This document shows, in pieces, positions 7,385 through 61,015 of a DNA stretch of 64,000 nucleotides. Positions within the stretch are counted from its first letter, which is position 1. The number at the start of each line of letters is the position of its first letter. Source of the DNA: Marsupella aquatica. Taxonomy: Eukaryota > Plantae > Marchantiophyta. The notes beneath the pieces were generated by a model. The model was not told where the DNA came from. It made no database searches and worked only from the letters and a program-made list of their open reading frames with translations. The position numbers and the translations under genes were made by a program. The stretch lies in contig OZ316895.1 of the NCBI GenBank assembly GCA_973895155.1, positions 4,963,181 through 5,027,180 on the forward strand, read 5' to 3'.

Positions 7385-7742
7385 ATAAAAGGCGTAAGAG
7401 AAACAATCGTACTGAAATCAAATCGAAAACCGGCGGGATGCCAAGATCGGCCGGGAGCATCTAACGAATCACTGTGTGAATCCCGTGTACGGAACTGACG
7501 AGCACTGTCTGAGCTCTGTCAACAGCGATTCAAGAAGAACTGAAAACCCACAAAGAAAGACATGCCCTAAGTAAACAAAGTCCTGGCGTCACACTAACAA
7601 GCGTGTTTGCTTCAAGAACGTCTTGCATTTGCTATAAGAACATGTCGCTAACTCAAGTAGTACACTAGCCCTAACTACATACCTAGCGGGCATGCGAGGG
7701 ACATGTCGATGTGCATAAGAGGCATTGTCCCTCTGCATGACA
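7385..7742 (-). repeat. Terminal repeat segment 'A' (5' end) of copy A1
   Basis: Matches 45202-45558, 62763-63121 and 25612-26611. Begins TGTCATG on the element sense strand. Confidence 0.9.
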
Positions 7743-25437: not shown

Positions 25438-26789
25438 TGTCGTGACATATAGTATCGTAGCCATAGTGTATCGAAAAATACAAGTCACCGGCAAGGCATA
25501 TGTGCAAGCTGCTAGCAACCAACATGCATAGAAAAAGTCCCATCACATTTACAAGTGCCAAGAAAAAGCAAATGAGGTGGTATGTAGTAGTGGAGGTGTA
25601 AACCTCTGTATATAAAAGGCGTAAGAGAAACAATTGTACTGAAATCGAATCGAAAACTGGCAGGATGCCAAGATCGGTCGGGAGCATCTAACGAATCACT
25701 GTGTGAATCCCGTGTACAGAATCGACGAGCACTGTTTGAGCTCTGTCAACAACGATTCAAGAAAAACTGAAAACCAACAAAGAAAGACATGCCCTAAGCA
25801 AGCAAAGTCCTGGCGTCACACTAACAAGCACATTTGCTTCAAGAACGGCCCAGACTTGCTACAAGAACATGTCGCTAACTCAGGTAGTACACTAGCCCTA
25901 ACGGCCCCATTCACAATTGGGTGTACCTCGTAGGAACCACTTTCAGGACTCAAAAACATGCTTTTTTAGTGAAAAATAACTTTCGTAACATGGAAAAAGG
26001 TTCATCATGATTTTATGTCAAGACATTTAAGTCTAATTTTTTCACAAGACTATTTTACATGGCGTAACCTACCTCACCATGTAGATACATCAAGTTTTCA
26101 ACTATTTTAAGGGATCCTTTTATTGATGGCCCTAAATAAGCCAAAATTACTAATTATTTTTGTCCTATACATAAAGATTTAGTGTGTGTCACTATTTAAG
26201 TTTTGAAATATAAGATTATGCTATTAGTATGCATGCTTTGGTAAAATTTCATTGTCTAAAATGCATTTTTTAGAGTCCTTTTGAGTCCTGAAATGATGTG
26301 ACCCATTGCGTGACAAGTTCTTTTATCAATCTTTGAAGGACATATAAAGAAAGCTTCAAAGTCTCAAATGCTAGATAGTTTAATGAATGTTACCAACCTC
26401 TAGGATGTTTATTAAGTATAGTACATCAAATTTTCTATATCATCTCCTTACACCCTAAAAATGATATCCTAAAGCATAATAAACTATGGTCACTTTTGAG
26501 TGTGACGTTCCTTTTGGGTCCTCCAATTGTGAATGAGGCCTAACTACATACCTAGCAGGCATGCGAGGGACATGCCAATGTGCATAAGAGGCACTGTCCC
26601 TCGGCATGACAGCTGTCGTGACATATAGTATCGTAGCCATAGTGTATCGAAAACATACAAGTCACCGGCAAGGCATATGTGCAAGCTGCTAGCAACCAAC
26701 ATGCATAGAAAAAGTCCCATCACATTTATAAGTGCCAAGAAAAAGCAAATGAGGTGGTATGTACGTAGTGGAGGTGTAAACCTCTGTAT
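25438..26789 (-). repeat. 3' split-repeat block B1-GC-A2-B2 of copy A2
   Basis: 25438-25611 repeats 26614-26789. 25612-26611 (minus the MITE) repeats 45202-45558. Junction TGACA-GC-TGTCG at 26607-26618. Confidence 0.92.
25903..26540. mobile_element. 638-bp AT-rich MITE (PIF/Harbinger-like) inside repeat A2
   Basis: 18-bp TIR GGCCCCATTCACAATTGG / CCAATTGTGAATGAGGCC (1 mismatch). Flanked by TAA(C) on both sides. Absent from the other A segments. Confidence 0.85.
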
Positions 26790-29700
26790 CCCCCCAGACC
26801 ACAGCCAAAAGGAGGGCTGAAGAAAAATCAGGTAGCATGTGGAGCACAGGAAGGGCAAAACCATAACCCTTCTGGCACCTGGGTAAGTTCAGGCCGAAGG
26901 TAGAAAAGATGGTACCCTCCATTGCAATTGTCACACAGCAGCATCTGGTCAGCATCATCAATTCGTAAACACACTTTGCAAGGGTAGTCCACAGGTGGAA
27001 TCCAAGTAGAAGTCACAATGGTGGGATCCAGATTAGGCAGATGACAAGGGGCGCAATTCTTGGCATTGTCAGCAATTGTGCGCCCATTTGCCCCTTGTAA
27101 CTCTAGCACTCCAGATGGTTGAATAGCTTTAACCCTGAGAATCGTATGACTGGTAGAGGTGTCTAGGGTGTCGTTAGCTTGCCGCTGCAAGTACACAAAA
27201 TCTCCCACATCAAAATTCCTGACCTTGGGCTGAAAAGTGCCCCCTCATGTGTGTGCATAATGCAGTGTGTCCCTGTCTTGTGCAATGGCCAAATTCTCCA
27301 TGGCCATGGGCATAACTCTCCTGAATAGGGCAGCCCTCTCAGAGATCACATCAGACCAAGTCACAGCTGAATCCAAGTCCACCACCTGAAGCATGTGAGC
27401 AGCAATAGCAGAAGGTGGAACTGGGTGACGACCAAACAACAAGAAGTAGGGAGAAAAGTTAGACAGTGATGCATGTCTGAACATCCTATACCCCATGGCA
27501 ATGTAGGGTAAGGCCAGATCCCAATCCTCCTTGTTTTTGGTGAGGCAGATCTTTCGGAGGCCCTTCTTGCATGTCTGAACTATGCGCTCTGCCAAGCCAT
27601 CTGCCTATGGGTGATCTCGTGATGTCCAACGATGATCAATGAGGGCCTGATCAAGCAGCTCCTGGAACTCTCCTCTAAACTTTGAGCCCTGGTCAGTGAG
27701 ACATTCTGCACAAGCTCCAAAGCGGCTGAGAACTTGTTGCAAGAATGCCTGGCTGGTGCTACGGGAGGTCTTATCCGGCAATGCCACAAGTTCTATCCAC
27801 TTGGAGAAATGCTCTATCATGAACATGATGTAGAGATTACCCCAAGACGTGAGGGGTAATTCTCCAGCCAAATCACATGACCAGCAATAAAACATGCCCT
27901 GAATAGGGAGTGGATGAAGTGTGGGTTGCCGAGATGTGAAAGAAGTCCTCACCCTATCACATTGTTCACACCGGGCAATAACATCTCGAACCTGGCCATG
28001 CATGCCTCTCCAATGATAATGAGGGACCAAGAGGCTGTAAGTCCTCTTAACGCCAAAATGACCAAGCTCATAATGTACCTTACGGATAAGGCCAACCCTC
28101 TCATGAATGGGTGGAACCACCACTTCCCTGTTTGGCAAGCAGCGCACGAGATGATCTCCCTTCCACAAGTAACGCTTGGACCTTTGCTGAATTTGGTCTC
28201 TCTGGGCAGTAGTAACATGTATGGGGTACTCCCCATGCTGCAAAAATCTTAGAGTGTTGTTGTCCTCCCATATGTCCACCACAAGTTGGTCAACAACATA
28301 GCATGGCAGCAAAGCAAGATAGGTAGATGCATGAAATGTAGGCAGGATGGAAACCTGGTCAAAATCCTGTCGTGCATCTGAGGAATCATTAGAGGCAATC
28401 AAAGGGCTGCGGGACATAGTGTCAGCATTTTGATGTGTCACACCAGGCCTATGAATTACCTCAAAATCATACTCTTGGAGTATGAGCGCCCAACGAGCAA
28501 GCTTGCCATTAAGCTTGTCGTTGGTCATCAACCACTTCAAGGGCTGGTGGTCGGTGTAGAGAACAAACCTAGTCCCATAGAGGTAGGGCCTATAATGTAT
28601 GACAGCCCACACAACAGCAAGACATTCACCCTCATAAGAAGAATAATGACTCTCTACTTGATTGTTGCTCCTGGATGCATAGGCAATGACGTACTCTTTA
28701 CCTTCCTCATCATGCTGGCCCAGAATGGCACCAATCCCAAGGGCACTCCAATCTGTGTGTAGCACAAAGACCTTGCTGAAATCAGGTCTTCTAAGCACCG
28801 GGTATTCTGAGAGCTTCTCCTTCAAAGTGGCAAATGCTGCCTCAGCATCTGTACTCCATGTCCAAGTCACATTCTTTTTCAACAAAGAGTACAATGGATG
28901 TGCAATGGTACTGAAATCTTTGATGTAAATCCGGTAGTAATTGCACAACCCAATAAAGCTCCTAAGAGTGTGAACATCAGTAGGAGTGGGCATTTCCAAG
29001 ATGGATACCACTTTGGCCCAGTGAGCCATGGTTCCATTTGGAAGAATGCGGTGCCCAAGGTATACTACTGATCTGACAGCAAATTCACACTTCTTGGGAT
29101 GTATCTTTAGGTTCACCTTCTTAAGCCTCATGAATAGCTCCTCAAGGTCAAGTAGATGTTGGTCAAATCCTTTGCTGTGGACCAACACATCATCAATGTA
29201 GCATTTCAGAAACTCAACACCTTGAAGAACCTGGTCCATGACTCTTTGAAAGAATATGGGCGCATTCTTCAAGCCAAATGGCATCACCAACCACTCCCAT
29301 AGTTGGTTATTACCATGGAAAGTTGTTTTCTTGCGATCCTTTGCAAGCAGCAAAATTTGGTTGAAGCCTTGCCTTAGATCCACAAGAGTGAAGATGTCTG
29401 AGTCTCCAATGCTATCAAATAGCTCGTCTGGCTGCGGCATGGGGTACCTATCCTGGGGTGTGACCAGGTTCAATGGCCTGTAGTCCCCACACATGCGCTT
29501 CTCTGTCCACAATCCACTGGAATTCTTCTTTGCTGGCATCACTGTAGCTGCTACAAATCTGATGTAGATGGCTGAATAAGACCAGCTTCATAGAGCTCTT
29601 GGCACCTCTCATCCACCAGCTACCACTCATGCTTACTCAAACGGTGTCTCCGCCTGAAGATAGGTGTTTCATCAGCCAACTCAATGGAGAACTGCATAGT

Positions 29701-30162
29701 CTTGCACTTACCCAAGTCCTTCATAGAGAAAGCAAACACATTCTCATGATTGCTTGAGGAGCAAATTCAGCAGCTGGTCCTTCTGTCTTTTACTCAGGTG
29801 GTTGCCCATGATGAATGTGTAGTTGGCAACACTAGGAATAGGACCTGATGTACTCGTGCTTGAAGAACCAGAAGTGCTAGCCTCTCTACTGTCCAAGCTG
29901 CTAGCATGCTGCTGATAAGGTGATGAGGCCTCGCCAAGGCCTGTTGTACCTGCTGATCTGGGTTGGTCCACACCATGAAACTCAGAAATAATGTCAGCCA
30001 CATTACAAGGGACCTCCTCCCCCCAACACTTGGCTTGAAGCGGTGAGTGTTGAATAGAGGTAAGTGCACCTGGTCTGGATGCCATGTAACAGCACCATGG
30101 AGTGGTAGGGCTGGAACTCTAGATGCTGAATGAATGTACATCTGAAAAAGGATGCAAGTTAC

Positions 30163-31103
30163 CAGAAGCCAAGTGAGAGCATTGAGATCCATTACCCTGC
30201 CAAGTAAAGCATTCCTGGCCAACCTGGTGATTTTGGTGTGACATGTAGTACCGGGTTGGAAGCCCATACCCCGTTCTCTCTCCTCAGGACTAGGTTCATC
30301 CCATGTACCGGTAGAATGTCGATAAACCAGGCCAGGACCATCACCCTGAAAAGCATGTGCACCGGGAAAGGATACAAATGTAGGCCAAGCAGCACGGGGC
30401 TGTCCAATGGTATTGGCTGGATACCAAGGTGCTGGCTCTTGCCGTGTAACTGGTTGGCAAGAACTGTCAGGATCCAAAATCTGGTCCACTATGAGGTTAG
30501 TGTCCCTGGATGTGTGGTGAAGAGCTAACTCCAACAAGGAAGGTGGTGCAAGGTTAGTCCAAAAGTTACGAAGATGATGTGCATAAGAACCACAGTGCAT
30601 TGCATCAATGAGAAGGGGTGGTCCCAAGTAGTGTTGGACCACACTGAAATCCTCTTTGACCTGTGGACGCTGGTCAAACTGAGATGGAGTATTCTCAATG
30701 ATATAACCAACAGCAGGATAAAGGGATTGAGCCTAGGTGAGAATCTGAACCAATGCTGTGAAAAGGCCAGAATGAGAGTCATGCAATCCAGCACCATGAC
30801 CAGCAGCTGAAAACCCTTGGCATTCCCAACCAGCTATGATCAAATCAAGGGAACCAAGAAGGGTTAAGTGTCGGTGCTGGACAAGCTGGATATCTGGAGG
30901 GAAGAAAGAAAATGCAGACTTCCATGCATTGTGTGGAAACTGCTGAGGAAATCGTTCTGAAAATTCTAGCAGACGAGATTCAGCCACTTGCCTTGCACCT
31001 GGATCAATGTCCACGTAGATGTACTGCTTCACCACCATGCCGGACTGTAGAAGAGCTTCCAGGCCTGTAGAAATGCCACCAAAAAGCTCAAGCAATGTAA
31101 GGC
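30163..31103 (-). other. DNMT3-like methyltransferase domain of A2
   Basis: LLELFGGISTG, IIAGWECQG, ENTP, AHHLRNFWTN, ERERGMGF, RNALLGRVMDLN. In-frame stop near 30733. Confidence 0.88.
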
Positions 31104-33923
31104 CATCCAGAGCAGGAGTCCATGTAACTGGTGCGCTCAAGATTGGGGCTATTGGCTGTCCATTGTGCTGCCCAAGGTCTTCAAACTTGCGCAATGCAGC
31201 CACCAAAGATCCATGGGCTGCTTGGAGCCGTTGTACCACCTCTGGTTGATGATCCACGTTGCTGGAAAGTGCTGCTATACGTGTAGCAGCATGTGCAGCA
31301 ACCACCTCATCGTCATCCTCCTCAATCCAATCCTGCAATGGGTGGTTGACATAGGTAGCTGTGTGCACTGCTTTCAACACACAGTGGTGAGCCATAGGTG
31401 TATGGGCACCATGCAAATCAAGTGGAATGTAGCCCAAGTGTGAGCCATCAGTATGCCAATCAACTCTGTAGTATGCATGCTCATGCCAGTTGTCAATGGT
31501 AAAACCTGGTGGGAACAAAGCCTCCTGGCCAATGAGCACATCATACGTAGTGGCATTGGTAACCAAACATCTGACTGGGAAATGCAATTCCTGATCTGTA
31601 CCTCCATTAAAAGTGAGAGTGAGTAAAGTAGAACTCTCACCCAGCACATCCTCCACAGTGCCACTAGCAGTCCAAATATGCTACCTGGATTGCTATAAAT
31701 GATCAGTCAGCAGTCCCATCTTCTTGGCAAACTGAATGCCCAATATCACTGGTTGAGCGCCTATGTCTAGCATGACCACCTGAGGAGTGTGACCCTCCAA
31801 CTTGACCGCTGAATTCCTGTTATCAACAATGGCAATGGTGGTGGAAACTGAAGTCTTGTCGCTAGGCACCACTTTTGGCAGATGATGAGGTACCTTGTGA
31901 AGGGAGTTAGTATCCATGGTCTTTCCACTCAATAGCATAGTCAGGAAAGATGGAGTAGCATGAGCAGAATCCAGTGTAGCTCTGGTCACACAATCTGCAG
32001 CAATACTATCATCGCTACCACTGGAAATTGGTACTGGGATAGCCAAACCAGTGGAAGCATGTAATGGAGAAGAAGAAGGTCCAGTATGTACATGAGATTG
32101 GACCTCCAAAACCGGTGTCACAGGGGCTGATGAAGAATGCAGTGAGCCCTCTAGCGCTCTGATGACAGCTCTAGCATCCAGCTGTAAATCATGGCAACTG
32201 AAAAGTGGAGTTGTAAGAATCCTTTGTGCCATACCGGAGGTGAAATGCTCAAGCAGCTCAGGAGAAACAACTCCCTGTGAAATGTCAGCAACACCTGGTG
32301 GTGGAATGGATGTAGCTGTAGCTCCCTCCCCCCTTGCCAACAAGGTGCGCTCTTCAGCAAGTGTGAGTGGCTGAAAGGATTGGGGCATGACAGCCCGAGC
32401 TCCCCTGGCTCTAGTCATAGGACCAGCAGCAAGACCATCATCCTGTACAATGCGGCGGGTGGGAGCAGTACGGGAAGCAGCACTGGCCTGCTGGTAAGCA
32501 AAATAGGAAGGGCAGAATGAATCTGAAAATTCTGCCGTAAGGCCAGGCTATGTAGCAGAGGACAACACACACTCACCCATATGAGCATCAAATGGCAAGC
32601 CATAGAAAGAGCGGGGTAGAGGTGCTGAACTGTCAGTGGTGCCTGAGCCAGGGATGGGTTGCACGTGACCAGCCGGTTGAGAAGGACCAGCAGAGGCAGT
32701 TGACTTGCCTTTGATATTGGCAAGTTGGGCACGTAAGGACTCAACCTCATGAGTTAGAGATTGAAGTTGAGTTGCCTGTGCATTGTGAGCCTCCTTCTGA
32801 GCTGGTTACTTCTGTTGCTGCTTGGGCAATTTGTTGGCACCAGGTGCTTTGCCATTGGAAGGAGGAGCAGTTGATGCAATAGGAGCCCTCCTAGCTGGTG
32901 GGGGAGTGGAAACAGGAGCAGGATGAGTGGCCTGTTGTCGTAGCTGCTTCCTCTCTGGGAATTTGGCAAAACAAACTGCTTCCAAGTGACCCACTTTCCC
33001 GCAAAAATCACAAGACAGATCCTCAACAACAATATCACATTCATTAGCCTTGTGATTGGGGTTACCACAGTAGTTGCAAGATGGCAGCATGAAAGCAACA
33101 TGTGCTGGCTTGGTTTTGGAACCGTATGGTGGCACACGGGAAGGGGTGGCCAATGTAGGGGCAGCAGCCTGGTACCTGGATCGCGGTGGACGCGCAATAC
33201 TGGCCTCATAATGTGCATGGGCCAACTCAAGTTTGTCAGTAGTGTCATAGACATTGAGCAATGTGTAGCTGTCTCCAAACTCTGAGAATACTTGCTGCAA
33301 CACTTGCGAATGGAGAGCTGGTGTGCCCTCCAATGCACGAAGATAGCGATGCGCAGCCTCCAGGTCAGTGATGCTCTGGGTGTCCTCCTTCAGCTTGAGA
33401 AGCCGGCGATACATCATCTTCAATGTTTCATCGCGTTGCCTCACAAAGGTAGCCAACTGCATGATTTTGGCAGCACTCTTGATTGGGAATTCCAATTCAA
33501 GAACCTGGAAAAACTCAGCCATTGGATCAGCAAAGGCAGGAGAATCAATAGTGGGAGAAATGCCTGATGTAGCCTGTGCCAAGACAGTGGGAGTTGTCAC
33601 ACCATTCTGAGTAGTGTAGTAGTATATCGTGCTATTAGAGTATGTACGTTTGGTATGAGTGCTATTGGAGCCGATAAGGTTCTGTCAGGTTTGTGTGAGA
33701 GGGTACTTCTCACTTGTGAGGCATTGAAAGGTCATCTTTCAATGTTGAGCCTTGGAGAGAGAGGAGCTTGAGTGTGGCTATGGTGGCTGTGAGCTCCGCT
33801 TGTGTAACGTGGATTCCTTGAGTAGTGCAAGGTGCGTTGGCTTGACATACATGTGTGATCGGATCGGTGCGGGATCGATGGGGTATTGTTGACCGAGATC
33901 GTTGTGCCGATTGTATGGAGATT

Positions 33924-33935
33924 ACATTGAAAGAT
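33924..33935 (+). promoter_or_regulatory. Putative self-priming primer-binding site of element B
   Basis: ACATTGAAAGAT directly follows repeat A1 and is the exact reverse complement of ATCTTTCAATGT at 33734-33745 inside A1. There is no TGG-type tRNA PBS. Confidence 0.7.
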
Positions 33936-36900
33936 CACATTCGAAATCTGTTGTACGGACTGTGCGGACAGAAGTTCGATTGATTGAGTTGTCGACGGTT
34001 CGTGGTAGCTCGGATCGTGTGTTGTTATCGAACAGATTGTTGGTATCTTGACCTGTATCGTTGTTGTCCGATCGGCCTGCTTCCCGATCGATGTACAAAT
34101 CTGTGATTGGTGACAGGTTTTGAGTTGGAGGTCGATTGATGATTCGTGGAGGAAAGCGAATGTTGAGTAGATGTTGGACAGTGGAAGTCGATCCGTGAGG
34201 CTTCAGATCCGATTGCCGGCTACTGTGAGGCTTCAGATCTGATTGTTGGCTACTGTGGGGCTTCAAATCTGATTGCCGGCTATTGTTGGACGATGTTGGC
34301 AAGGCGCAGGTGAAGCGATGGCTCTTTTCCTGAAGGAACGGAGCTGCCAATGCCCCGTGCGACGGTATCATCATTTCAGTGAAAGAAACGAGGGTCAAGG
34401 GTGTTGAATCAAGCTGCTGCCAATTCTGTGGAAGGGCTGCGTTTTTCATGAAGGAAATCAACAGTTTTCGGGAGCTTTTCGTGAAGGAAGTAGTCGTTTT
34501 TGGGGTTAGGTGTGAGGCGCACGAGGTCACCCATCCCGAAAGTGCTCACGCGAGGCGACGCGTGAGGTCACCCATCCCGAAAGTGCTCCCAACCGCGAGC
34601 GCGAAGTCACCCATTGCGAGCGCAGGCAGGCGTGAGGTCGAGGTCACCCATCCCGGGGCTATTCCGGGCCGTGAGCGCGAGGGGAGGCACAAGGTCGAGC
34701 GCGAGGAGGTCACCCATCCCGGGGCTATTCCCAGCCGCGAGCGCTTAACTGGCAAGTTCTCATCCCACCTTGTGTACACACAAGCTTTGACAACTTGTTG
34801 TTTAGATTCAAGCGCCAGGGGGCTTTATACACTTCCCGGTTTGTTTAGAGGCCTATTCTAGGCCAAATCAGAGGCTGTTTGAGGGTTTTTGATACTTCTG
34901 AGTCCATCTAGACTCACAGATTGAACCAATTTTGCCTTGGTTCTCATCTACAACATTGGAGTGCCATTGTGAAGCCTATTATGAAGGCTCTTCCTTGAAC
35001 CTTATGCACATTGTCATATTGATTTGCATTTGCTTTTGTGTGGAGAGTTGAATGGTATCCATTCTTGTTTCTGGATCCTCTTCACACATGTTTCCTGTTT
35101 ATGCGCCATGTTAGTTTCATGTGGGCGCTTGATTCCATAGGAGTGATCCGGGTTTGCAACTGGACATTCTAGTGTGCTGTGTATTTCTCTCTTGGTGATG
35201 TTGGAGTGATGCCCAACACACCATGGTGAGTGCTTGTGGTGCTGACAGGGATAGATTGCCCTTAGGGTTAGCACATAGATTAGGTTAGGGTTGGTCACCA
35301 CGGATTCTTCTGGTGCTGCTGGATTACCCGATGGACGACGGACCGGTTTCACTCGGAGTGGGGCACAGTTTCGGCCAGCGGCATTGGTAGCAGTCAGCAG
35401 TGCAGCTTCAGACAGTGATTCTGATGAGGACTCAGTGACCAGTTCTCCTCATCATCAGGTGGTTGCACCTTTGTTGTGGGATATGGACGAGATGTACGGG
35501 GCTACAAAGGGCCCACGACGATACTCTGGTGCAGTTGGCACAATTGATCTGGATGACTTCATCCAGGAGTTTGATACGTGGTGCGATATGCAGACATTGC
35601 GTAATGTCACGTTGTTTACCCCTTTCATGGCATGGAAGGGATTATTCCAACATTTGGAGGGGCCACCCATGGATGACTACCATGAGTTTCGGAAGGCTCA
35701 TTTGGTTGAGATTGAGGCATGGAGGCAGCATTGGTCACCTAATTACGTGTCCATCACCTATGGCACTAGTGTGGCTGCCCAACCAATTGCCACAGCTGCT
35801 GCTTCTTCTAGCAGCACTAGCCAGAGTGGCACACCATCCACCAGCAGCACTCCAGCAGCATCCACCACTACTCTTGCCGGTGTGATTGTGACAGGAACTA
35901 GAGTTGCGCCAGCATTTAATCATGTGGTGGAATTCTTTGAGGTACTGAAGCAGAACTATCAGGGTGTGAGAACTGATAAGTTGAAGGGTCTTCAGGAGTT
36001 CCAACGCAAGACTGGAGAAAGCCTACGTGAGGCATACACACGTATGCGCAGATTGATCACTGTCACCAAGGGAGTGACAGAGGCTCAGGCAGTCCAATTT
36101 TGGTATGCAATTCTGGACAGAGAATTGCGACGCAGAGTGAGAGATGTCACTCTGCTTAGGGATGCAGATCCCACATTAGCAGTTGTTTTCACCCTTTCTG
36201 AGCGCATTGAGCTCAATATGGTGAATGAGAAGGTGGTGACTTCCGAATTTTCCAAGGAAGCACCAAAGGCTGCATCTACATCCACACTAGAAGCCTACTG
36301 CACGAGAGTCTACCAGCCAGAGACCTGTGCCCTCTTATGTTGGATAGCAGTCAGGATGTTGGACCTGTGGTGGGGATCATGCACAGAGATATTGTCCAGA
36401 TCATAGAGGATCAGGGGGAGCATCAGCGCCTGATCAGCGACAGTGTGATCACTGTGGAGCTCCTGGACACACCAAGGATAGGTGTTTCTCACTCCACCCT
36501 GAGTTACGGAGAGGAGGATCCCGTACACATGATCAGGGAAGAGGAGGAGGAGGTAGAGGTGGTGGACGTGGTCGTGGCATGCCACATGCAGGGAGACAGG
36601 GAGGTGACGCTACCCCTACTGTAACCATAGATCCAAAGGATGCTAAGATTGCTCAATTGGAGCAACAACTAGCTGCCATGGCTAGTTCCCAGGTGAGACC
36701 TAATTCTGGTGATGGGGCATCTACATCCTATGGACCTTCCACATCCCATGGTCCTTCCACATCTTATGGAGCTGATGGAGACCTTGCCACCATGGGATTC
36801 ATGTATGGCACTGCACATATTGATGCATCAGCAGCTTTGACACGTGGGGCAGCCAAAGCTCTTGAGCCCCGAGGAGCAGTAGTGGAGTTAGATCCACAAA

Positions 36901-38117
36901 GGGGGGATGCACGTCGGCAGACAAAGCTTCCTCAGTCTTTTACATTGTCAGAGACAGTTCAGACTGCCTCTATGAACCCGGTTCGGACAAACCCTGATGT
37001 GGGTAAGTTGGCAAAATCAGGTAGTGATGCAGCAGGGATGACAGGTACCTTGCTGGGGGCGGCTACTGCCATAGTACGCACCCCATTATTTTCAGCGACA
37101 GACATGCTGAACTTGGGAGTTGGTCCTGCAGAAGTGTTCAGATTGGCAGCTACACTCTGTGAGGACACTCCAGTGGTTGCTTCCCATGCAGAAGCAATTT
37201 GCAGTGTTGATGCAGTGAAGACCATGCCACCTATTGCTACTAGTGAGACATGGCATGCAGCAACAACGAGGTTGGTGGATTTACCAGCACGCCCTGCATT
37301 TGAGAGGACTAGGTTTAAACCTAGTGTTGTGTCATTGGATAATCGGAGTGGTATCTTCCGATTAGTTGGGCCTTCTGGAGCAGTATACCAGCTAGAGAGA
37401 GTGTTATTGGATACTGGTGCTCAGCCCTTGATGTTGGGGAAGTCTGCCATACGTGGATTGGGATTGCGTCCAGAGGATTTGGAGGATTGTCCCTTTCCCA
37501 TTCAGACTTCATTGGGGGGACCTACACCTACACAGCATATCACCAGGAGACCACTTGATTTGAGGATTCAGGAAGGTCATACCACAGATAGCTCACAGAT
37601 ACAGGCGCGAGCTATTCTGACTAAGGCAGAGTCATATGATGTGTTGGTGGGATGTACAGTGCTCTACCCCATGGGATTTATTCTTGATTTTTGGGAGGAA
37701 TCAGTGTCATATAGACCTGATTGGCAGTCAGGAGATGCTCGATTGAGCAAATTGCCAGTGAGATTTAGTGGACCTATGGGAGGCCCTAAATCCACACCAT
37801 TGTCTTTGGCAGCATTCAGTGGTGTAATTGCTGGACCTGATGATTTGATTGAGGGTAATACGCATGCAGCCGATGTTCCACCATTGGAGGAGTCTCATGA
37901 GGAGCACATCATGCGAGGATTACCTGTTGGCAATGTTGTGCCACCAGTGTGGGGCACTGCACAAGCCTTGCCACAGGCAACAGCACGATTGGTACATGAT
38001 GCATGGCGTCATGCTTTTACACCACAGTCAGGAGCAGAGCAGTCTCTTGCAGATGGACCTGTGACTCTTTCACCATTGGATACCACTCCTATTGCTTGGC
38101 AGTATCCACCGGAGGGT

Positions 38118-39060
38118 ATTTGTTGGTTGGATCTTTTTGGTGGGATTAGCACTGGATTGGCTGCTATTCTTCAGGCAGGAATTCCTGTGCGTCGTTATTT
38201 GTATGTGGAGACAGATGAGACAACACGGAGGGTCTCATTACGACATGTGGCTATGTTGGTGGATAGATATCCACAGTTGCTGCCAGTGGATGCTGTTCGT
38301 GGTTATCAGCATGCACTACCTGCTGATATTTCATTGTTGGGGGCGGATCATCTACATCGTGTTGGCCCCATTGATTTGGTGATTGCTGGTTGGCCATGTC
38401 AGGGCCAATCTAGAGCTGGCATTGGGCATGGACTTCATGATCCATGCTCTGCATTGTTTTGGGAGATGTTACGGGTGTTGCGTCACCTCCAGCTACATCA
38501 GACACAGTCTCCAGCATACATTTTGGAGAATGTGCCATTGTTAGGTGATGATCGTAGTCGGATTGTTGCCAGTGTTCACCAGGTGAGGTCTTGGATTGGA
38601 CCTGCTGTGTTATTGGATGCTGCATGTGTGGGTTCTCGTGCACATCGTCCACGCTTGTGGTGGACTAATTTGATCCCATGTGAGGTGCTGAAGCGTGCAT
38701 TTGACAGCATTCCACGCTCACCAACCTTAGTGGTGGATAATATTTTGGATCCAGGGCGTCGTGCACAGGGTGTGACCCAACCTGATAGACCTCCATTGGC
38801 AATGGTCAATGCAGTTGGGTGCCCACGTTGTGCATTACCCACTCTTGTTAGCCACTCTACTTCATATGCATTCAGAGCAGGTGGCCCTGGACTTGTATGG
38901 GACACAGCTCTCCAGCAGTTAGTGGAGCCTACTGCTGATGAGAGAGAGCGTGCTATGGGATTTTTGACTGGCACCACTGCAGTTGCCTCTGTGTCAGAGG
39001 GTTTGCGGCGCCAGGTTCTTGGTCAAGCAATGGATTTGAATTGTTTGACTTGGATTATTA
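38118..39060 (+). other. DNMT3-like C5 cytosine methyltransferase domain of element B (uninterrupted)
   Basis: WLDLFGGISTG (I), YVETD (II), VIAGWPCQG (IV, catalytic PC), YILENVP (VI), AHRPRLWWTN (VIII), ERERAMGF (IX), RRQVLGQAM (X). Confidence 0.92.
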
Positions 39061-42000
39061 GCTTGGGAGTAGCTGAACAGTTGCGGATGCGCTCTGCTGG
39101 AATTACTGATTGTCCCTTGGTGAGCTTGCGGTCCACTGAGACAGTATTCACCACAGCTGGGGGCGAGCAGACAGTCCATGGACCTATGACAGGATTGGCG
39201 GCTGGACAGACTGTTGAGCAGGAAGGGACTACTCAATCTACTACTAAATAGCAATCATCGGCTATCTCTTCTACCCTACAAAGAGATATTAGGGATTTGG
39301 TGGAGAGTTGGGAACCACAGCTTGGCCCTAAGTTAACAGGGGAGGAGAGACGTTGCATGCATCGATTCCTGAAGAGTTATTGGAATTGTTTTGCATTCAG
39401 CATGAAGGATTTGGGGACATTGAAGGGCCCTGGTATTCAGATTGAATTGGCTAGTGATGCGCCAATCTTTCATAGACCATACCGTTATAGTGACATGGAG
39501 AGAGCTCTGATTCAAAGCAGAACTCAAGATTTGTTGGAGGCTGGATTGGTGGAGATTTCATATGGGGAGTATGCATCTGCCACAGTGATGCTAGCCAAGA
39601 AGGATGTGCAAGGCAATTACACAGATAGGCGCATGTGTGGTGATTATAGACCTATTAATCGCCAGACAAAATCTGATCGATATGCCATGCCCACACCTGA
39701 GGAGATCTTTGATGCTGTGGGGCATGCAAAGGTTTTCAGTTCATTGGATCTGAGGGCAGGATACCATCAGCTTCCAATTAGGCATGCTGACAGGTCCAAG
39801 ACAGCATTCTAGGGGATTGATTCTTATGGCAAAGATCGTTTGTATCAATGGTTATTCTTACCATTTGGGTTGAAGAATGCACCAGTTGAGTTCCAGAGAG
39901 TCATGGATCAAATCATTGCAGGTTTGGATTTTGTTAGATGTTATATTGATGATATTTTGGTCTATTCTTCTACTGTGGAAGAACATCAGCAGCACTTGCA
40001 GACTGTGTTGGAGAGATTGAGAGCACATGGGTTGAAGCTCCATCCTAGCAAGTGTAAGTTCTTCCAAGACCAGATTGAGTATTTGGGCCACACCATATAC
40101 CCAGGGGGATTGGGTGTACAGCAGACTAAAGTGGAGGCCATTACACAGATTCCTTGTCCTACTGATGTGAGTAGAGTTCGTGCATTCTTGGGATTGGCGA
40201 GCTACTACAGGAGGTATGTTAAAGGATTTAGCCAGCTTACTAAACCTTTGACCATACTCACTAAGTTGGATCAGGAATGGATTTGGGGTGATGACCAGGA
40301 GCATGCCTTTCAGGAGTTGAAGCAAAGGTTGGCATCATCCCCTATTTTGAGAAGACCCATTTCAGGCAGACCATTTCAGCTACACACTGATTGGAGTGGA
40401 GTAGGACTTGGAGCAGTGCTGACTCAGAAGGATGATGAGGAGAATGAGTTTGTTGTGGCTTATGCCAGTAGATCAAACAATTCAGCAGAGGCTAAGTATA
40501 GCTCTTATGAGGGAGAGTGTTTGGCAGTAGTGTGGGCTGTTGCACACTTTCGTTGCTACTTGTTTGGTAACCCCTTCACCTTGATCACTGATCATCAGCC
40601 TCTTAAGTGGTTAATGGAGTCTGACAAGCTTACAGGGAAGCTTGCACGATGGGCATTGTTGTTACAGGAGTATGATTTCCAGGTGGTGCATAGGCCTGGA
40701 AAAGTGAACTTGGATGCAGATGGATTAAGCCGCAATCCATGTACCAGTCAGCAGGATGAGACTGGAGCCAGATGGCATGATGAGTCAGATAAGGAGATGG
40801 TGCCAGGATGGCATGCATCTGCCTTTCTTTGTTGGGTGCCAGCATACAGTGGATCTATGGACTCTACTTCATTGGATGGAGTGGGTGATGAGTCTTCAGA
40901 TGTGGATGTTGGTGAGGTAACTTCTGGACAACAAGATATTCACAATGATGTGAGAGTGTTGGAATATCTGCGCAATAGTTCTATTGTTGGCAGTGTTGAT
41001 GCCAAGGAACGTGACAGGGTTCTACAGAGAGCCAAGAGGTTTCGATGGGAGGGAAACCATCTTTTGAGAGTACTGCATGATGGTAGGATGTTGGTGGTAC
41101 CAAAACCATCACAACGAGTACATTTGGTGCGACATGCGCACGAGGAGTTGGGTCACTTTGGTGTGAAGCGCACTTACAGCTTGCTGCAGACGCAGTATTG
41201 GTGGCGTGGTATGCACACTCATGTCCAACAGTTGATAGCTAAGTGTGTGGTATGTGACAGAGTGAGAGCATCATTTAATGCTCCCACTCCCCAGTTGCAC
41301 CCGTTATCGATCATGGGTTTGGGATATCGTTGGAGTTTGGATTTTGCTGGTCCATTACCTCTTACCCAACGTCATAATCGGTATGTTTTGGTCATGGTGG
41401 AGCACTTCTCCAAGTGGATTGAGCTAGTGGCGTTGCCAGATAAAGCCAGTGGAGGAGTTGCTGCTACATTTTTGGATCGTGTACTCAGTCATTTTGGAGC
41501 ACCAGCTGAGGTGTTGACTGATCAGGGAACTGAGTTCCGTGGAGAGTTTGAGAGTTTGTGTGAACAAGCTCTGATTGATCATCGCACTACCTCTTGTGAT
41601 CATCCTGAGGCAGATGGATTAGCTGAGAGAGTTGTGCAAACTGTGAAGAGAGGATTGCGTAAGTATGGCTTGCAGGTTGGTCATCTGGGAGATTGGGATC
41701 TCCAACTACCTTGGTTAGCTATGGGCTACCGTTTCAGTCGGCAAGCATCACTTGCATCCTTCTCACCCTACTTTTTGCTCTATGGTAGAGAGCCAGATTT
41801 GCCAGCAGCTATTCGTCGTCATGCTGCACTAGTTGTGAACTTGGATGATCCTGATGTTTGGGTCAAGGTGTGTTCAGAGAGAGCACGGGTATTTCAGAGA
41901 GTGATGCCCATGGCTTTTGACAACCTTGCCATTGCCCAACATCGTGATACTTTGAGGTATGCCACTATTCGTGGAGGAGGTTACCGTGCAAGCATTCGAC

Positions 42001-42236
42001 GATTTCATCCTGGTGATTATGTTTATTTGCAGCAGACAGCACCCACGACACTTGATGTGACCGCAGGCCGGATAATCTTACGTGTGCGTGAAGTGTTGCC
42101 TTCTGGTGTCCTGATGTTGGAGGGACGCGATGGTATGGTTTGGAAGGATCATGTGCGCAACTGTGCACCATGTCACCTTCCCAACATTGATGGTACAGTA
42201 GATCCAAGCTTGGCACATGTTCGTGCTGGCTTGAAA

Positions 42237-42377
42237 TGTATGTTGTGTGGATCTGCTCAGGGAGCAGCTACTATGTTGATTTGTGATAAGTGTTCTAGAG
42301 GATGGCACATGTCATGTTTGACACCACCATTGCAGGTGATTCCTAGTGGATCATGGTTGTGTCCTCAGTGTCGGTGA
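42237..42377 (+). other. PHD finger at the integrase C-terminus of element B
   Basis: CMLC...MLICDKCSRGWHMSCLTPPL..IPSGSWLCPQC, a C4HC3 pattern. Confidence 0.92.
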
Positions 42378-42550
42378 AGCCGACTAGTTATCATTTGTGT
42401 TCTCTTGGCAGATATGGATTGCAGGTAGGTGATCGATGGGGCTCACTTGCACCCGGCCTCCTGATCTTCACACCTAAAAAGGTGTATATCAACCTTGTAG
42501 AACTCATGGCTAGCTAGAGTTAGAGGACCTTACTCCCAGCTAGGGGGGCG

Positions 42551-43157
42551 ATTGTGGGTTTTGGACATGTGTGGACATGAGTTCCACTTGTATTCCATTC
42601 TCTTGTATTTGTGATGTGGCAGTGTGACTATGTCTGGATGTATGTGACAAGCGATGTATGTTGTGTAGCGATATGTATGCGCACGACAGCTGTCACACCA
42701 TTCTGAGTAGTGTAGTAGTATATCGTGCTATTAGAGTATGTACGTTTGGTATGAGTGCTATTGGAGCCGATAAGATTCTGTCAGGTTTGTGTGAGAGGGT
42801 ACTTCTCACTTGTGAGGCATTGAAAGGTCATCTTTCAATGTTGAGCCTTGGAGAGAGAGGAGCTTGAGTGTGGCTATGGTGGCTGTGAGCTCCGCTTGTG
42901 TAACGTGGATTCCTTGAGTAGTGCAAGGTGCGTTGGCTTGACATACGTGTGTGATCGGATCGGTGCGGGATCGATGGGGTATTGTTGACCGAGATCGTTG
43001 TGCCGATTGTATGGAGATTATTGTGGGTTTTGGACATGTGTGGACATGAGTTCCACTTGTATTCCATTCTCTTGTATTTGTGATGTGGCAGTGTGACTAT
43101 GTCTGGATGTATGTGACAAGCGATGTATGTTGTGTAGCGATATGTATGCGCACGACA
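42551..43157 (+). repeat. 3' split-repeat block B1-GC-A2-B2 of element B
   Basis: The 138-bp B1 (42551-42688) equals B2 (43020-43157). The 329-bp A2 (42691-43019) equals A1 (33595-33923), with about two substitutions seen by eye. Confidence 0.95.
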
Positions 43158-45189
43158 GAGTAACTGGCGCAGTGGTAGGAACTGGAGTAGGAGGGGAAGT
43201 AGTAGGAGCAGCAGCATGGGCTGCAATGGCATTCTGTAATGCCAGTTGTGAGGCAGCTGCAATTGCACTAGCATAGGGAGGATTAGGCAATTGTGTGACA
43301 GCAAGCAACCGTTGAGAGTGCTGCTCATACACATCGAAAGCCTCATGGTGCACATACCTGGCTAGCTGCTTAAATGCAAAAGCATTTGTGAAATTGCTGC
43401 CGTACTTCAACTCCAATTTGTAAATGATAGTGTAGAAAGTGGATTTGAACTCACGCAAAGAAACAGTGCCTGGCCGCCCACTGAAGCGCTCAATGCGGCT
43501 AGATGAGTGACTGGCATCCATGCTGTATGTCGGTGAAGCTAGAACAATCACTGATGCAAAATTGCCGAGACTCCAATGAAATGGGCACCAACGGTCGTGG
43601 ATCACTCCGTAAGTGGTACCTGGGCGTTGGTGGCGATGAGCTGCTACCTCCCGGCTCGTTTGCTGACATGCTATGTGACAGTACCCAAATTGTGCAAAAT
43701 GTGTAAAGACTAAGAAAACCCGTCACTGTCAAAAAACCGTCAGGGAAAACGGACCCTTAAAACCTCAAATGTACCCGTGTTGTGCTTGCCGGAAAGACCA
43801 TTTGATGTGTATGCCGGGCCCTCACCGTGATGCAGATAAAATGTGGTGGCATCAAAGAAATCCGGGAAGAATAGGCCCTTAAACGTGAATAGGCCCCCCC
43901 CACCTTAAGTGTATACACATCCGGGCCCCATTGTGGACCCGGAAACTGCAGCCGGACCGGCCGAGTGTGTATACACGCTCGTGGCACGCTCCCTATGCAG
44001 CGGTAGTCGGAAGGCGTCGAAAAGAGGCGAGGAGGTACTATGACCGGCGAGGGAAAGAAATGGGAGGCAACTCGTGAAGGCAGCGGCCGAGGCGAGGCAA
44101 GGCGAAAAGGAGAGAAGTCGGCAGAAAAGAAACAGGCCCCTCTTAAGTCGAGGGGGAAGGAAGGAAAACGGTCAAAAAAGGGAAAACCGGGCACGATGCC
44201 CTGTGCATTGACAGTCGATGGTGAAGGGCGAGGCAAAAGAAAACCGGACCCTAATTAATTCGGGCCAGCACTTGAGGCGAGGCAGGGCGTTCAGAAAGAA
44301 AGGAGCCCCTGACGTGAGCCCTCCATAGGGCTTCGTGCCCCCCCAATATGAGCTCCCGAATAGACGGGGCTACGAGCTCCCCTCCCCTCCTGAAAGGTTC
44401 TGTGGGCCTCGTGCCCTGGTGAAAGTGTGACTCCCGAGAGAGGGAGTCAAATGTACTCCCCTCCTCCCTTAAATGCTTCATAGGGCCGTGTGCCCTCTCC
44501 TTGCGCTCCCCCCTCCCCTCTTTTAATGCTGTATTGGGCTTCGTGCCCTCTCCTGGCAGTCGCTCCCCCTCCTCCCTGCTTTCGCTTGTACTTGGCTCCC
44601 CCCTGCCCCTGCATTAATGCATAATAGGGCCTCGTGCCCTCTCCATGCTTGTGCCTCAACTTAATCCCCCTTCCCTACTGTGTAATTGTTGGCAACAGGC
44701 GAGGGAGGAAGAAAAATGCCGAAGGGAGGGCGCACGGCCCTATGCGCGACCCAGGGCAATGATGAGCCCCGCATGTGTATACATAGGGGAGGCAGCTCAC
44801 GACGGTAGCTGCGAGGGGAGGCAAAATGAAACGACGGCCGATGACAGAAAAGAAAGAACGGGACCCCAAAGGGTCGTCAAAACGTAAGGGGAAGGGAAGG
44901 TGGTCGCGCTGCGACCGGAAAACACCGAATATGGCCCGAAAAAGGTCGTGGCAGTCAGCAGTCGGCAGCCATAGTCGAAAGCAATTATGGAAGCAGATCG
45001 AGTTGCGGCTGGCAAGAAAAATCCGGGCCCCTTGTTATGTGTATACACTTAAGTATACACATAACACCACCATAAACCCATAACTTTTAACTCAACACTC
45101 CGATGTCCGTCGAAGAAATTGCAATGGCTTCACCAGAAATTGTCGAGATCATCACAAGCAATCTTCTTCCCCTCACCACTATCTCGACG

Positions 45190-45201
45190 AGTTCTTCTTG
45201 A
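45190..45201 (-). promoter_or_regulatory. Putative self-priming PBS of family A
   Basis: Plus-strand AGTTCTTCTTGA abuts repeat A and is inverted-complementary to TCAAGAAGAACT at 45347-45358. The same pairing occurs at 62751-62762/62908-62919 and, with 1 mismatch, in A1. Confidence 0.7.
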
Positions 45202-45558
45202 ATAAAAGGCGTAAGAGAAACAATTGTACTGAAATCGAATCGCAAACCGGCAGGATGCCAAGATCGGCTGGGAGCATCTAACGAATCACTGTGTGAATCC
45301 CGTGTACGGAACCGACGAGCATTGTTTGAGCTCTGTCAACAGCGATTCAAGAAGAACTGAAAACCAACAAAGAAAGACATGCCCTAAGCAAGCAAGTCCT
45401 GACGTCACACTAACAAGCACATTTGCTTCAAGAACGGCCCATACTTGCTACAAGAACATGTCGCTAACTCAGGTAGTACACTAGCCCTAACTACATACCT
45501 AGCGGGCAGGCGAGGGACATGCCAATGTGCATAAGAGGCACTGTCCCTCGGCATGACA
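45202..45558 (-). repeat. 5' repeat segment A1 of copy A2
   Basis: Matches 25612-26611, 7385-7742 and 62763-63121. Confidence 0.92.
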
Positions 45559-52300: not shown

Positions 52301-53671
52301 ATATGACTCTAACTTGTAGCACGTTGGTTTGGGTGCAAAGTTGATTGATTTAAGAGTGGGATCAACATTTTCGTGCAGCTCAAGCCAATGTCAATGGAGA
52401 CATAATGCCTAAGGTCAATTCACATAGCAAACAACCAATATTACTATCATAATGATTCTTCTTAGCACTACATATTGTATTCTATCTTCTAACAATGCAA
52501 GGTCACAAAATTGCCTTGAAACCTTAGAGACAATCAACTGCTGAACTACTCAAGTCATTATATTTGGACTACAGCAGCACCACCTGCCAAGTAGAATCAA
52601 TCTTGGGCCATACTCCCATCCCGGAGCTAGGGAGGGCTCAAGACCAAATACCAGAATCAATCTCAAGATACTCTGTTCCCTAGCACCAGCTCAACTAACT
52701 ACCAAAAACAATTCTAACCTTGTGGGCAATTGCATTAAAGTTCACATTCCTTTGTATTCTTGCCTCATTTTTACTCATCTTAATAATAACTAAAGCAAAA
52801 CCTTTTTACTTCTTTCCCAACAATCATGGTGTACATGGCTCAATTGTTTTTGCAAAACGCCTCCACAAAAGGACTGTCTCCCTTTGAATTGTTGCCCAGC
52901 AGCACCCAACGCTAGGGTAGTTGGGTGGGAAACTAATTTTAGAATATTAATAAACCCAAGGCGCAGTTTTTTGTTTTTTAACGTTAGTTGATTTGGGTAT
53001 TGGATGACACTATACTAGACCACTAAAGTGCCATGGGCACTCAATTTGAGTTGAGAAGAGTACTTTCTCAACTAAGATGAATTGAAAAGTTAACTTTGCT
53101 TTTCTCCTCACTTTTCTCAACAACGAACACTAAGCTTGTTGAATTATGACATCTTCCTTCATGATGATCCAATCATTACTCATACCATGCACACGTAGTC
53201 GACACAATCTCTACGTGGTTCACCTCTTCTCCAAGGCTACGTCCACACGACCACAACAACTTTACTTCACAATAGTCGAACACACAAGCTCTCTCTCTTC
53301 CTCAAGTTGCTTCGTTACAATGAGCAAGCGGGTGAGCAAGCACCACACACCAACGGCTTACACTAGCCCTGGTATATACAAGGTCACAAATGACTAACCT
53401 AACCTTAGCTAAATCCCTAACTGTGGTTAGCCTAAGTGCCGTAACCTATGATTCACTGTCGTGACATATAGTATCGTAGCCATAGTGTATCGAAAACATA
53501 CAAGTCACCGGCAATGCATATGTGCAAGCTGCTAGCAACCAACATGCATAGAAAAAGTCCAATCACATTCCCAAGTGCCAAGAAAAAGCAACTGAGGTGG
53601 TATGTACGTAGTGGAGGTGTAAACCTCTGTATCCCCCCCAGACCACAGTCACAAGGAGGGCTGAGGAAAAG

Positions 53672-59600: not shown

Positions 59601-61015
59601 GGTTGCTTCTGTTGCTGCTTGGGCGGTTTGTTCACACTGGATGCTTTGCCACTAGAAGGAGGAGCAGTTGATGCAGTAGGAGCCCTCCTAGCTGGTGGGG
59701 GAGTGGAAGCAAGAGCAGGAGGAGGGGCCTACTGTCGTAGCTGCTGCCTCTCTAGGAATTTGGTAAAACAAACTGCCTCCAAGTGACCCACTTTTCTGCA
59801 AAAATCACAAGACAGATCCTCAGCAACAATATCACAGTCATTAGCCTTGTGATTGGGGTTACCACAGTAGTTGCAAGATGGCAGCATCAAAGCAGCATGG
59901 GCTGGCTTGGTCTTGGAACCATACTGTGGCACACGGGAAGGGGTGGCCAGTGTAGGGGCAGCAACCTGGTACCTGGATCGCGGTGGACGTGCAATACTGG
60001 CCTCATAATGTGCATGGGCCAACTCAAGTTTCTCAGCAGTGTCATAGACATTGAGCAGGGTGTAGCTGTCTCCAAACTCTGAGAATACTTGCTGTAACAC
60101 TTGCGAATGGAGACCTGGTGTGCCCTCCAATGCGCGAAGATAGCGATGAGCAGCTTCCAAGTCAGTGATGCTCTGGGTGTCCTCCTTCAGCTTGAGAAGC
60201 CGGCGATACATCATCTTCAAGGTTTCATCGCGCTGCCTCACAAAGGTGGCCAATTGCATGATTTTGTCAGCACTCTTGATTGGGAATTCCAATTCAAGAA
60301 CCTGGAAAAACTCAGCCACTGGATCAGCAGAGGCAGGGGAATCAATGGTGGGAGAAATGCCTGATAAAGCCTGCGCCAAGACAGTGGGAGTAACTGGTGC
60401 AGTGGTGGGAACTGGAGTAGGAGGGAAAGTGGCAGGAGCAGCAGCATGGGCTTCAATGGCATTCTGTAATGCCAGTTGTGAGGCAGCTGCAATTGCAGTG
60501 GCATAGGCAGGGTTAGGCAATTGTGTGACAGCAAGCAGCCGTTGAGAGTGCTGCTCATACACATCCAAAGCCTCGTGGTGCACATACCTGGCTAGCTGCT
60601 TAAATGCAAATGCATTTGTGAAATTGCTGCCGTACTTCAACTCCAATTCGTAAACGACAGTATAGAAAGTGGATTTGAACTCACGCAAAGAAACAGTGCC
60701 TGGCCGCCCACTAAAGCGCTCAATGCGGCCAGATGAGTGACTGGCATCCATGTTGTATGTCGGTGAAGCTGGAACAATCACTGATGCAGAAGGAGTAAAG
60801 GGCAGAGAAGCGATAGCAGGCTTCGGGGTAGTGGTAAAGCGACCGCCAAATGTAGCAGAAGGATTGCGTGGTGTGGGTGCTGCTGCTGTCTGCTGGCGTC
60901 GTCGAAATTGCCGAGACTCCAATGAAATTGACACCAACGGTCGTGGATCACTCCGTAAGTGGTACCGGGGTGTCGGTGGCGATGAGCTGCTACGACTCGG
61001 CTCCTCTGCTGACAT
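53672..61015 (-). pseudogene. Disrupted gag-pol of copy A3
   Basis: ORFs 59729-61057 (Gag), 58309-59157 (PR), 57189-58260 (DNMT pieces), 55215-57110 (RT/RH), 54594-55157 and 53723-54634 (IN, PHD). Multiple stops and frameshifts. Confidence 0.9.
57005..57925 (-). other. DNMT3-like domain of A3 (frameshifted)
   Basis: LLELFGGISTG, IIAGWECQG, YIIENTP, AHRLRNFWTN, MGFQPGTT, RNALLGRVM. Confidence 0.87.

Follow-up and report, generated by a model that had tools for sequence, protein, structure and literature searches.

Four Gypsy retrotransposons, elements A to D, occupy much of the 64,000-nucleotide stretch of the Marsupella aquatica genome analysed here (the window, contig OZ316895.1), and each carries a DNMT3-like C5 cytosine methyltransferase between its protease and its reverse transcriptase (RT), where the first-pass annotation had placed it. 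On balance, the whole is best explained by a Gypsy/PHD element whose DNMT is likely packaged and would methylate the element's own new DNA in the course of the cycle proposed below. Gypsy elements carrying DNMT3 are a known kind, while the comparisons made here suggest that a stop-codon readthrough site, self-priming, circle-type ends and membership in land plants are apparently new; the first-pass annotation mentions neither the split repeats at the ends nor the contexts for self-priming and readthrough. The weight of the finding accordingly lies in the replication anatomy and in its testability in Marchantia, and not in the presence of a DNMT alone. Feature coordinates are collected in Table 1.

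Table 1. Features of the four DNMT-carrying elements, in window positions
Feature	Position	Strand	Remark
Element B, complete, lying within gag of C	33595..43157	+	target duplication GAGT 33591-33594 / 43158-43161
B repeat A1 (putative 3′ part of U3 plus R-U5)	33595..33923	+	
B self-primer site, predicted transcript start	33734-33745	+	inferred
B primer-binding site (putative, Tf1-like)	33924..33935	+	exact reverse complement of 33734-33745
B gag	35279..36406	+	frameshift before zinc knuckles (near 36348-36406)
B zinc knuckles, aspartic protease, DNMT, spacer, terminal TAG	36348..39251	+	protease DTG at 37410
B DNMT3-like C5 cytosine methyltransferase domain	38118..39060	+	
B motif I, DLFGGISTG	38130		
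B motif IV, GWPCQ	38388		
B motif VI, ILENV	38520		
B motif VIII, RAHRPR	38637		
B motif IX, ERERAMGF	38940		
B motif X, RRQVLGQAMD	39006		
B TAG CAA TCA, family-wide in-frame stop	39249..39257	+	TMV-type readthrough context
B RT, RNase H, integrase (DDE), PHD finger	39252..42377	+	private premature stop 39810-39812
B polypurine tract adjoining repeat B1	42542..42550	+	
B repeat B1 (putative 5′ part of U3)	42551..42688	+	ends CACGACA
B palindromic junction GACA-GC-TGTC	42685..42694	.	right end, 2-nt spacer, left end; putative site of the integrase cut
B repeat A2	42691..43019	+	328/330 identical to A1
B repeat B2	43020..43157	+	138/138 identical to B1; A2|B2 is U5-end to U3-start join
Element C, ECQ, A1-coding-B1-GC-A2-B2, interrupted by B	25438..45558	-	target duplication GACT
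C repeats	A1 45202-45558, B1 26614-26789, A2 25612-26611, B2 25438-25611	-	
C DNMT	about 30187-31095	-	
Element D, ECQ, A1-coding-B only	53456..63121	-	target duplication TCAC
D DNMT, frameshifted	about 57030-57918	-	
Element A, ECQ, cut by window edge	1..7742	-	A1 7385-7742
A DNMT	about 1614-2498	-	

The elements are Gypsy by their pol order of RT, RNase H and DDE integrase (rve, H2C2), followed by a PHD finger. Although they had been taken for four copies of one element, two families are present. Elements A, C and D, all on the minus strand, are 94–96% identical to one another, whereas B gives no blastn match to any of them and shares 33% identity with A and C across the protease-DNMT region. 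Moreover, the DNMT of B reads GWPCQ and ENV where those of A, C and D read GWECQ and ENT, with Glu replacing Pro before the catalytic Cys, and the families are here called PCQ (B) and ECQ (A, C and D). The insertion of B into C is confirmed by four of four sequencing runs, in which 33590 is joined to 43158 as at the empty site, with 4 letters in common. The repeat pairs of B are almost free of differences (Table 1), a sign of its youth, and variant contigs of its family are numerous in public runs (run X1, 25,057 contigs); the earlier proposal of recent activity thus holds for B's family. All four window elements are nonetheless broken. Breaks fall in or beside the DNMT in A, C and D, and B, whose DNMT domain is uninterrupted as described earlier, carries a gag frameshift and a stop in RT, along with private changes in the DNMT itself, one of them at position 38125. 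Marchantia relatives (P0003 and P0004) retain an unbroken Gag-PR-DNMT.

The claim that all four elements carry a C5-MTase domain was borne out by PF00145, which scored above its cut-off in each (B, E 4e-09, 36.8 bits against a cut-off of 22; A, 1.8e-07; C, 1.7e-05; D, 4.6e-06). In B, the domain lies in the polyprotein region 3′ of the protease motif LLDTGA (37404) and has no introns; motifs I, IV, VI, VIII, IX and X, PCQ and ENV among them, were located in the order claimed for them, motif II is present as well, and the arrangement is canonical and unpermuted, with the catalytic Cys, the motif VI Glu and the motif VIII Arg-x-Arg in place. DNMT3A is the best solved-structure match (E 1.1e-11 with the single sequence, 8e-18 with a profile), and DRM (4.4e-4) and M.HaeIII (6.1e-4) are far weaker. 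An AlphaFold model of the domain (pLDDT 79.5, pTM 0.83) has DNMT3A as its top fold match (E 2.5e-17, TM 0.65), the matched form is DNA-bound DNMT3, and the matches listed are DNMT3A/B/C entries only. By both sequence and fold, therefore, the B domain is nearer to DNMT3 than to DRM or to bacterial enzymes, in agreement with the likeness first noticed from its motifs. Across eight aligned sequences of 44–70% identity, the catalytic Cys, the motif VI Glu-Asn, the motif VIII arginines and the SAM-binding motifs are invariant; B has a Cys at the Arg position of D-x-R-S, which is Arg in the other seven. Between subfamilies, the ratio dN/dS of the DNMT is about 0.07–0.21 (10 of 12 pairs computable), a rough figure since dS is saturated at 1.4–2.9, and that of RT is 0.03–0.12 where computable, so that the DNMT is somewhat looser than RT. 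The dN/dS comparison proposed earlier thus points to purifying rather than neutral evolution of the DNMT. Within-family values of 0.13–0.55 were rejected as a sign of function because they reflect decay after insertion.

The terminal regions depart from those of ordinary LTR elements. Elements B and C share the layout A1-coding-PPT-B1-GC-A2-B2, in which A and B denote two repeats and PPT the polypurine tract, and D has A1-coding-PPT-B; the complete layout recurs in loci L032, L054, L058 and L068. Target duplications of 4 bp flank all three window elements that retain both ends, and in six loci they are perfect (three), carry one mismatch (two) or are absent (one). Two further features of these regions are a run of short, imperfect tandem repeats (unit length 41 nt) at 34523-34746, within B's long 5′ UTR, and an AT-rich insertion of ~630 bp in the A2 repeat of C (25903-26535), which has imperfect inverted-repeat-like ends and is possibly a MITE. 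In eight of nine elements, the 11–17 nt after A1 are complementary to a site inside A, a match reached in 0–1 of 300 shuffles (12 nt and 0/300 for B), and a 10-nt match is present in L005 once its boundary is corrected. Four different primer sequences occur, each with its own matching site. TATAAAA stands ~30 nt upstream of the self-primer site in L054, L058 and L068; no clear TATA box precedes the predicted start of B, and no tRNA genes lie within the window. The RNA of Tf1 self-primes reverse transcription through its own 5′ end, and on the strength of these complementarities the present elements very probably do the same.

Since the primer site follows A and the polypurine tract precedes B, the true LTR would be B-NN-A, the B repeat starting directly after the tract and the A repeat ending at the primer site. 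The A2|B2 boundary joins the right and left ends to within ~2 nt in B, in C and in eight loci, and 11 loci drawn from both families have (C/T)A(C/T)GACA-NN-TGTCA, or a sequence close to it, as the junction after B1. In the ECQ family, the B repeat (right ends L053-L069 and L080) contains, ahead of its end, a tandem pair of CACGACA motifs spaced by 15 nt, which may form a double binding site for integrase. In the cycle that we propose from these features, transcription would start inside A, giving an RNA whose 5′ end is complementary to the nucleotides after A1 and hence self-primed, and reverse transcription from the self-primer and the polypurine tract would yield linear DNA with B-NN-A LTRs at both ends. 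These ends would join to form a two-LTR circle, creating the A2|B2 joint, and the DDE integrase would make a staggered cut at CACGACA-NN-TGTCA of the left LTR, where cleavage 3′ of CA on both strands would agree with the 2-nt spacer, and insert the circle as a permuted provirus. Copies of the D type, which are missing the 3′ A repeat that replication requires (L009, L013, L036, L051, L053 and L064 in addition to D), could be integrants of one-LTR circles or products of later B1/B2 recombination.

Integration from a two-LTR circle is, on this anatomy, the likelier route. A lesser but appreciable probability goes to an A-B-A-B arrangement formed without a closed two-LTR circle, for example by integrase acting on the internal site at the left with both cDNA ends tethered or joined in the particle, or from cut tandem cDNA dimers. 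The mirror permutation A-B-A-coding-B, with B at the left end, was seen at none of the left ends of 25 loci (some of them the same insertion) and in none of the four window elements, which implies that the two sites of the circle are not equivalent and counts against a free two-LTR circle, in which they would be. D-type copies are also frequent, with six B-only right ends against 11 full junctions. Such a route must nevertheless account for B2 being covalently joined behind A2, at a joint that is a near-precise meeting of U5 end and U3 start, and we retain the two-LTR circle as the working model for the provirus.

The PCQ and ECQ families also differ in how RT is reached. The DNMT had been described as sharing the pol reading frame apart from copy-specific lesions, which appears to hold for the ECQ family; in B the frame is shared, but the DNMT ORF closes with a TAG in frame with RT. 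In four of four runs, no variant at 25% or more occurs within 39244-39260, and the 40 positions that do vary between 39190 and 39860 all lie outside that interval. In contrast, the premature stop within RT is private to B, position 39811 differing in more than 99% of the X1 depth. The stop after the DNMT is thus a trait of the family and not a lesion. Among 80 metagenome loci, an RT start was present in 36 of the 54 of the PCQ group, and TAA or TAG followed by CAR lies 18–25 codons before RT in 31 of these 36 and in none of 21 ECQ loci, against a background of 401 such successions in 11,384 TAR triplets (3.5%). The five misses comprise three loci in which the motif is still present but precedes an insertion or a further stop, one that is frameshifted, and L031, which has no such motif. 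DNMT and RT share a frame in 26 of the 36 across spacers of 306, 309, 312, 351, 432 and 441 nt, and in the other ten the spacer is a few bases off 309. CAR-YY-A follows the stop in B, L003, L021/L022 and L026, and the motif is common to at least four lineages whose silent sites are saturated; many PCQ loci are near-copies, and most of them, a single near-copy family, read CAA CCC, the last base of which is off the CAR YYA consensus. Readthrough at UAG-CAR-YYA is used by SIRE1 retroelements. The same context, UAG plus CAR YYA, is the consensus of TMV readthrough (PMC2754532).

We consider it likely that the PCQ stop is read through at a low rate. Gag-PR-DNMT would then be the main product, readthrough at UAG-CAR-YY adding RT-RH-IN-PHD, and the DNMT, lying upstream of the conserved stop, is therefore predicted to be made at the Gag level and in excess over integrase. 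No consistent RNA-structure stimulator was found 3′ of the stop among B, L001, L003, L021, L026 and L029 (z against mononucleotide shuffles of -0.56 for B, about -3 for L021 and L026, and -1.3 to -1.9 for L001, L003 and L029). Many predicted proteins of B's clade stop about 70-160 residues past motif X. It is rather improbable that the stop is a real end and that RT-RH-IN-PHD of the PCQ family comes from a transcript that is spliced or begins internally, or from re-initiation. The off-consensus CAA CCC variant favours this, as do the Marchantia and Sphagnum gene models P0007 and P0048, predictions in which the DNMT region is joined to RT without a stop. A frame kept over six spacer lengths and a CAR directly after the stop in several lineages count against it, because neither is expected of independently translated ORFs, and low-rate readthrough remains our preferred reading for this family. 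The ECQ family, by comparison, seems to have a single long ORF, damaged here and there, that would yield one long polyprotein: in D, the ORF 55215-57188 spans the end of the DNMT and enters RT, and 10 of 20 ECQ loci are open and in frame from DNMT to RT. No conserved stop lies between gag and protease in A, C or D. The TAG CAA TCC that interrupts the protease in both A and C was taken as a lesion because D reads through there.

In the proposed cycle, the PCQ DNMT would be packaged at the Gag level and would methylate the element's new DNA before or at integration. We judge the case for methylation of its own cDNA, in or near the particle, to be evenly poised; this activity is favoured because of the position of the domain, its predicted dose, its conserved catalytic residues and the methylation of CG in yeast by SymbioDIRS-Dnmt3 (PMC5890265). 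Base composition offers no separate sign of it. CpG observed/expected is 0.22–0.34 in the elements and 0.75–0.82 in an NLR gene of the window, but depletion was rejected as a signature of self-methylation, as non-DNMT Gypsy controls, three pieces only, are equally depleted (mean 0.31, against 0.45 in 57 DNMT-clade pieces). Copy-specific C-to-T changes affect CG and CHG alike at ~0.06 per site and CHH at ~0.01, a pattern such as host silencing would give. A CpG within the right end (CACGACA) is conserved despite the depletion, and its link to the DNMT is a lead only. Still more tentatively, the elements may represent a green-lineage clade, abundant in bryophytes (Marchantia among them), that replicates unlike ordinary LTR elements: it would self-prime, circularise its cDNA and open a palindrome in U3 with a retroviral-type integrase, its Gag-level DNMT marking the new DNA and so setting either the cut site or how the host reads it; the mark would possibly include the conserved CpG of the CACGACA end.

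Two other roles for the domain are less probable. It is unlikely, though not negligibly so, that the DNMT rides with the PHD-integrase and methylates the insertion site or the fresh copy in place of particle cDNA, as might be supposed from the PHD finger on the integrase and from the many algal-type relatives in which the DNMT lies between RNase H and integrase; the PCQ DNMT, upstream of the conserved stop, is instead predicted to be made with Gag and to exceed the integrase. Somewhat more doubtful is a domain that does not methylate DNA but either serves the particle as a structural or nucleic-acid-binding component or acts on RNA. The Klebsormidium domain showed no activity in yeast, PCQ has been swapped for ECQ in many lineages and the CpG comparison lacks a self-methylation signature, all of which would suit such a role, but the catalytic and SAM-binding residues are invariant in the eight sequences and the fold agrees with that of DNMT3 bound to DNA. 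We accordingly still prefer a role in methylating the DNA of the element itself.

Relatives of the B domain are widespread. They were matched in Marchantia (as much as 73% across the whole domain; those of Marchantia polymorpha are about 70% identical to B), Calypogeia (72%) and Sphagnum, and at greater distance in Closterium, Mesostigma and Haematococcus, and a search with the B domain of a representative library gave 435 clusters at E 1e-30. The description of a land-plant lineage therefore suits the host but not the clade, which extends beyond land plants. No Klebsormidium-named protein and no host DNMT3 was among the relatives retrieved in protein searches, and gene annotation names these elements host methyltransferases. 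In an RT tree of 50 rows chosen from the 77 carrying both domains, elements with the DNMT before RT are split from those with the DNMT after RNase H (SH-aLRT 99), the ECQ family forms one group (support 100), and domain order and motif type track the tree with two changes. The replacement of PCQ by ECQ has taken place in many lineages. A DNMT tree, built from element-borne domains, places B with Calypogeia, Marchantia and Sphagnum sequences (support 99). Chance capture of a host DNMT3 fragment, or an assembly chimera, might be suspected from the broken state of all four window elements but is refuted, and keeps hardly any probability, given a domain order repeated in two families, dozens of loci and named genomes, an order and motif type that follow the RT tree, and purifying selection on the DNMT. 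The DNMT lies between RNase H and integrase in P0047, P0052-P0057, P0061 and P0093-P0105, Haematococcus included; either the domain moved within the polyprotein or it was gained twice. P0092 and P0132, element proteins filed under bacterial metagenome-assembled genomes, are probably algal or plant contamination in those bins.

Among described elements, the closest relative is KnitGypsy-Dnmt3 of Klebsormidium nitens, a Gypsy with DNMT3 and 'DIRS-like' A-coding-B-A-B repeats, a layout that is given in a figure legend and unexplained in the text available (PMC5890265). The Gypsy domain set, an unpermuted DNMT3-type domain, the A-coding-B-A-B layout and purifying selection are common to it and to the window elements, and the kinship with the elements of de Mendoza et al. 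that had been proposed holds on these counts. Judged by these shared features, the elements are of the KnitGypsy-Dnmt3 kind. According to the peer-review file, DNMT and RT share one ORF in KnitGypsy-Dnmt3 (PMC5890265), as in A, C and D, whereas B's family is split there by the conserved stop. Its host is an alga and the present one a land plant; the PHD finger, target duplications, self-priming, junction palindrome and replication model that are present or inferred here are not described in its accessible text (PMC5890265). KnitGypsy-Dnmt3 gave no methylation in yeast, a result that its authors call inconclusive, and de Mendoza et al. 2018 left open the role of retrotransposon DNMTs (PMC5890265). 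A 2026 preprint has only 'streptophytes (Gypsy-DNMT3)', and Gypsy-7a_cRei, with a PHD and 'LTR subparts', is not decisive in the part of its report available (10.1101/2022.06.16.496473). The available parts of PMC6453930 were not decisive for these elements, and those of 10.1101/363937 and PMC9977147 held nothing relevant. Our literature search, of incomplete coverage, returned no report of land-plant members, although the supplementary figures of PMC5890265 and PMC12344493 may show them or a PHD, no Gypsy split repeats explained by circle integration, and no readthrough or self-priming in these elements.

Split direct repeats of the form A1-coding-B1-A2-B2 are shared with the tyrosine-recombinase elements PAT, Ngaro and VIPER, and SymbioDIRS likewise carries DNMT3. 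The present elements differ in having a DDE integrase (rve, H2C2) and 4-bp target duplications, which, together with the absence of a tyrosine recombinase among the scanned element ORFs, rule out a tyrosine-recombinase element. At the palindromic end-to-end junction, the inferred action of a DDE enzyme on a circle has parallels in the circle junctions of the IS3 family, where such an enzyme also acts on an end-to-end junction. In the foamy viruses, integrase cleaves the palindromic LTR-LTR junction of the two-LTR circle (PMC1180852). Here, by contrast with both, the predicted site lies inside U3, a permanent copy of it is kept within the provirus, and the route is apparently the normal one. 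Like Tf1/sushi elements and plant Tcn1, for which self-priming has been predicted (PMC6317226), the elements have a primer site complementary to the predicted 5′ end of their own RNA and not to a tRNA. They differ from them in having a PHD in place of the chromodomain, an added DNMT and permuted instead of ordinary LTRs, and the PHD without chromodomain and the permuted repeats rule out identity with the chromoviruses. The hexanucleotide after the in-frame UAG in B, L003, L021, L022 and L026 is of the TMV type, but the stop, predicted to be recoded, follows Gag-PR-DNMT and stands neither at the gag/pol border nor before env.

Several consequences follow from this anatomy. Integration of a circular substrate is generally seen as marginal for LTR elements and retroviruses, and the terminal structure predicts an LTR-type integrase that would routinely use one. 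The readthrough site predicts a DNMT dose at the level of Gag, and the relatives in the genetic model Marchantia polymorpha make the DNMT question testable in a plant. Software that, as in PMC6317226, searches for a pair of terminal LTRs and a primer site for tRNA will overlook these elements or misplace their boundaries.

A viral-contig scan of the window gave no match. The window further contains an immune receptor gene of the hydrolase-NB-ARC-LRR type (11534-16680, minus strand), composed of DUF676/Abhydrolase_6, NB-ARC and an LRR with a ~210 bp repeat, and a further LRR piece at 8579-9355; this receptor type is enriched in non-flowering plants (PMC11218826). Together with the named relatives of the elements, the gene suggests a bryophyte host. 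A host exon resembling protein-lysine methyltransferases (19960-20820, minus strand; Methyltransf_16, E 4e-17) is unrelated to the elements.
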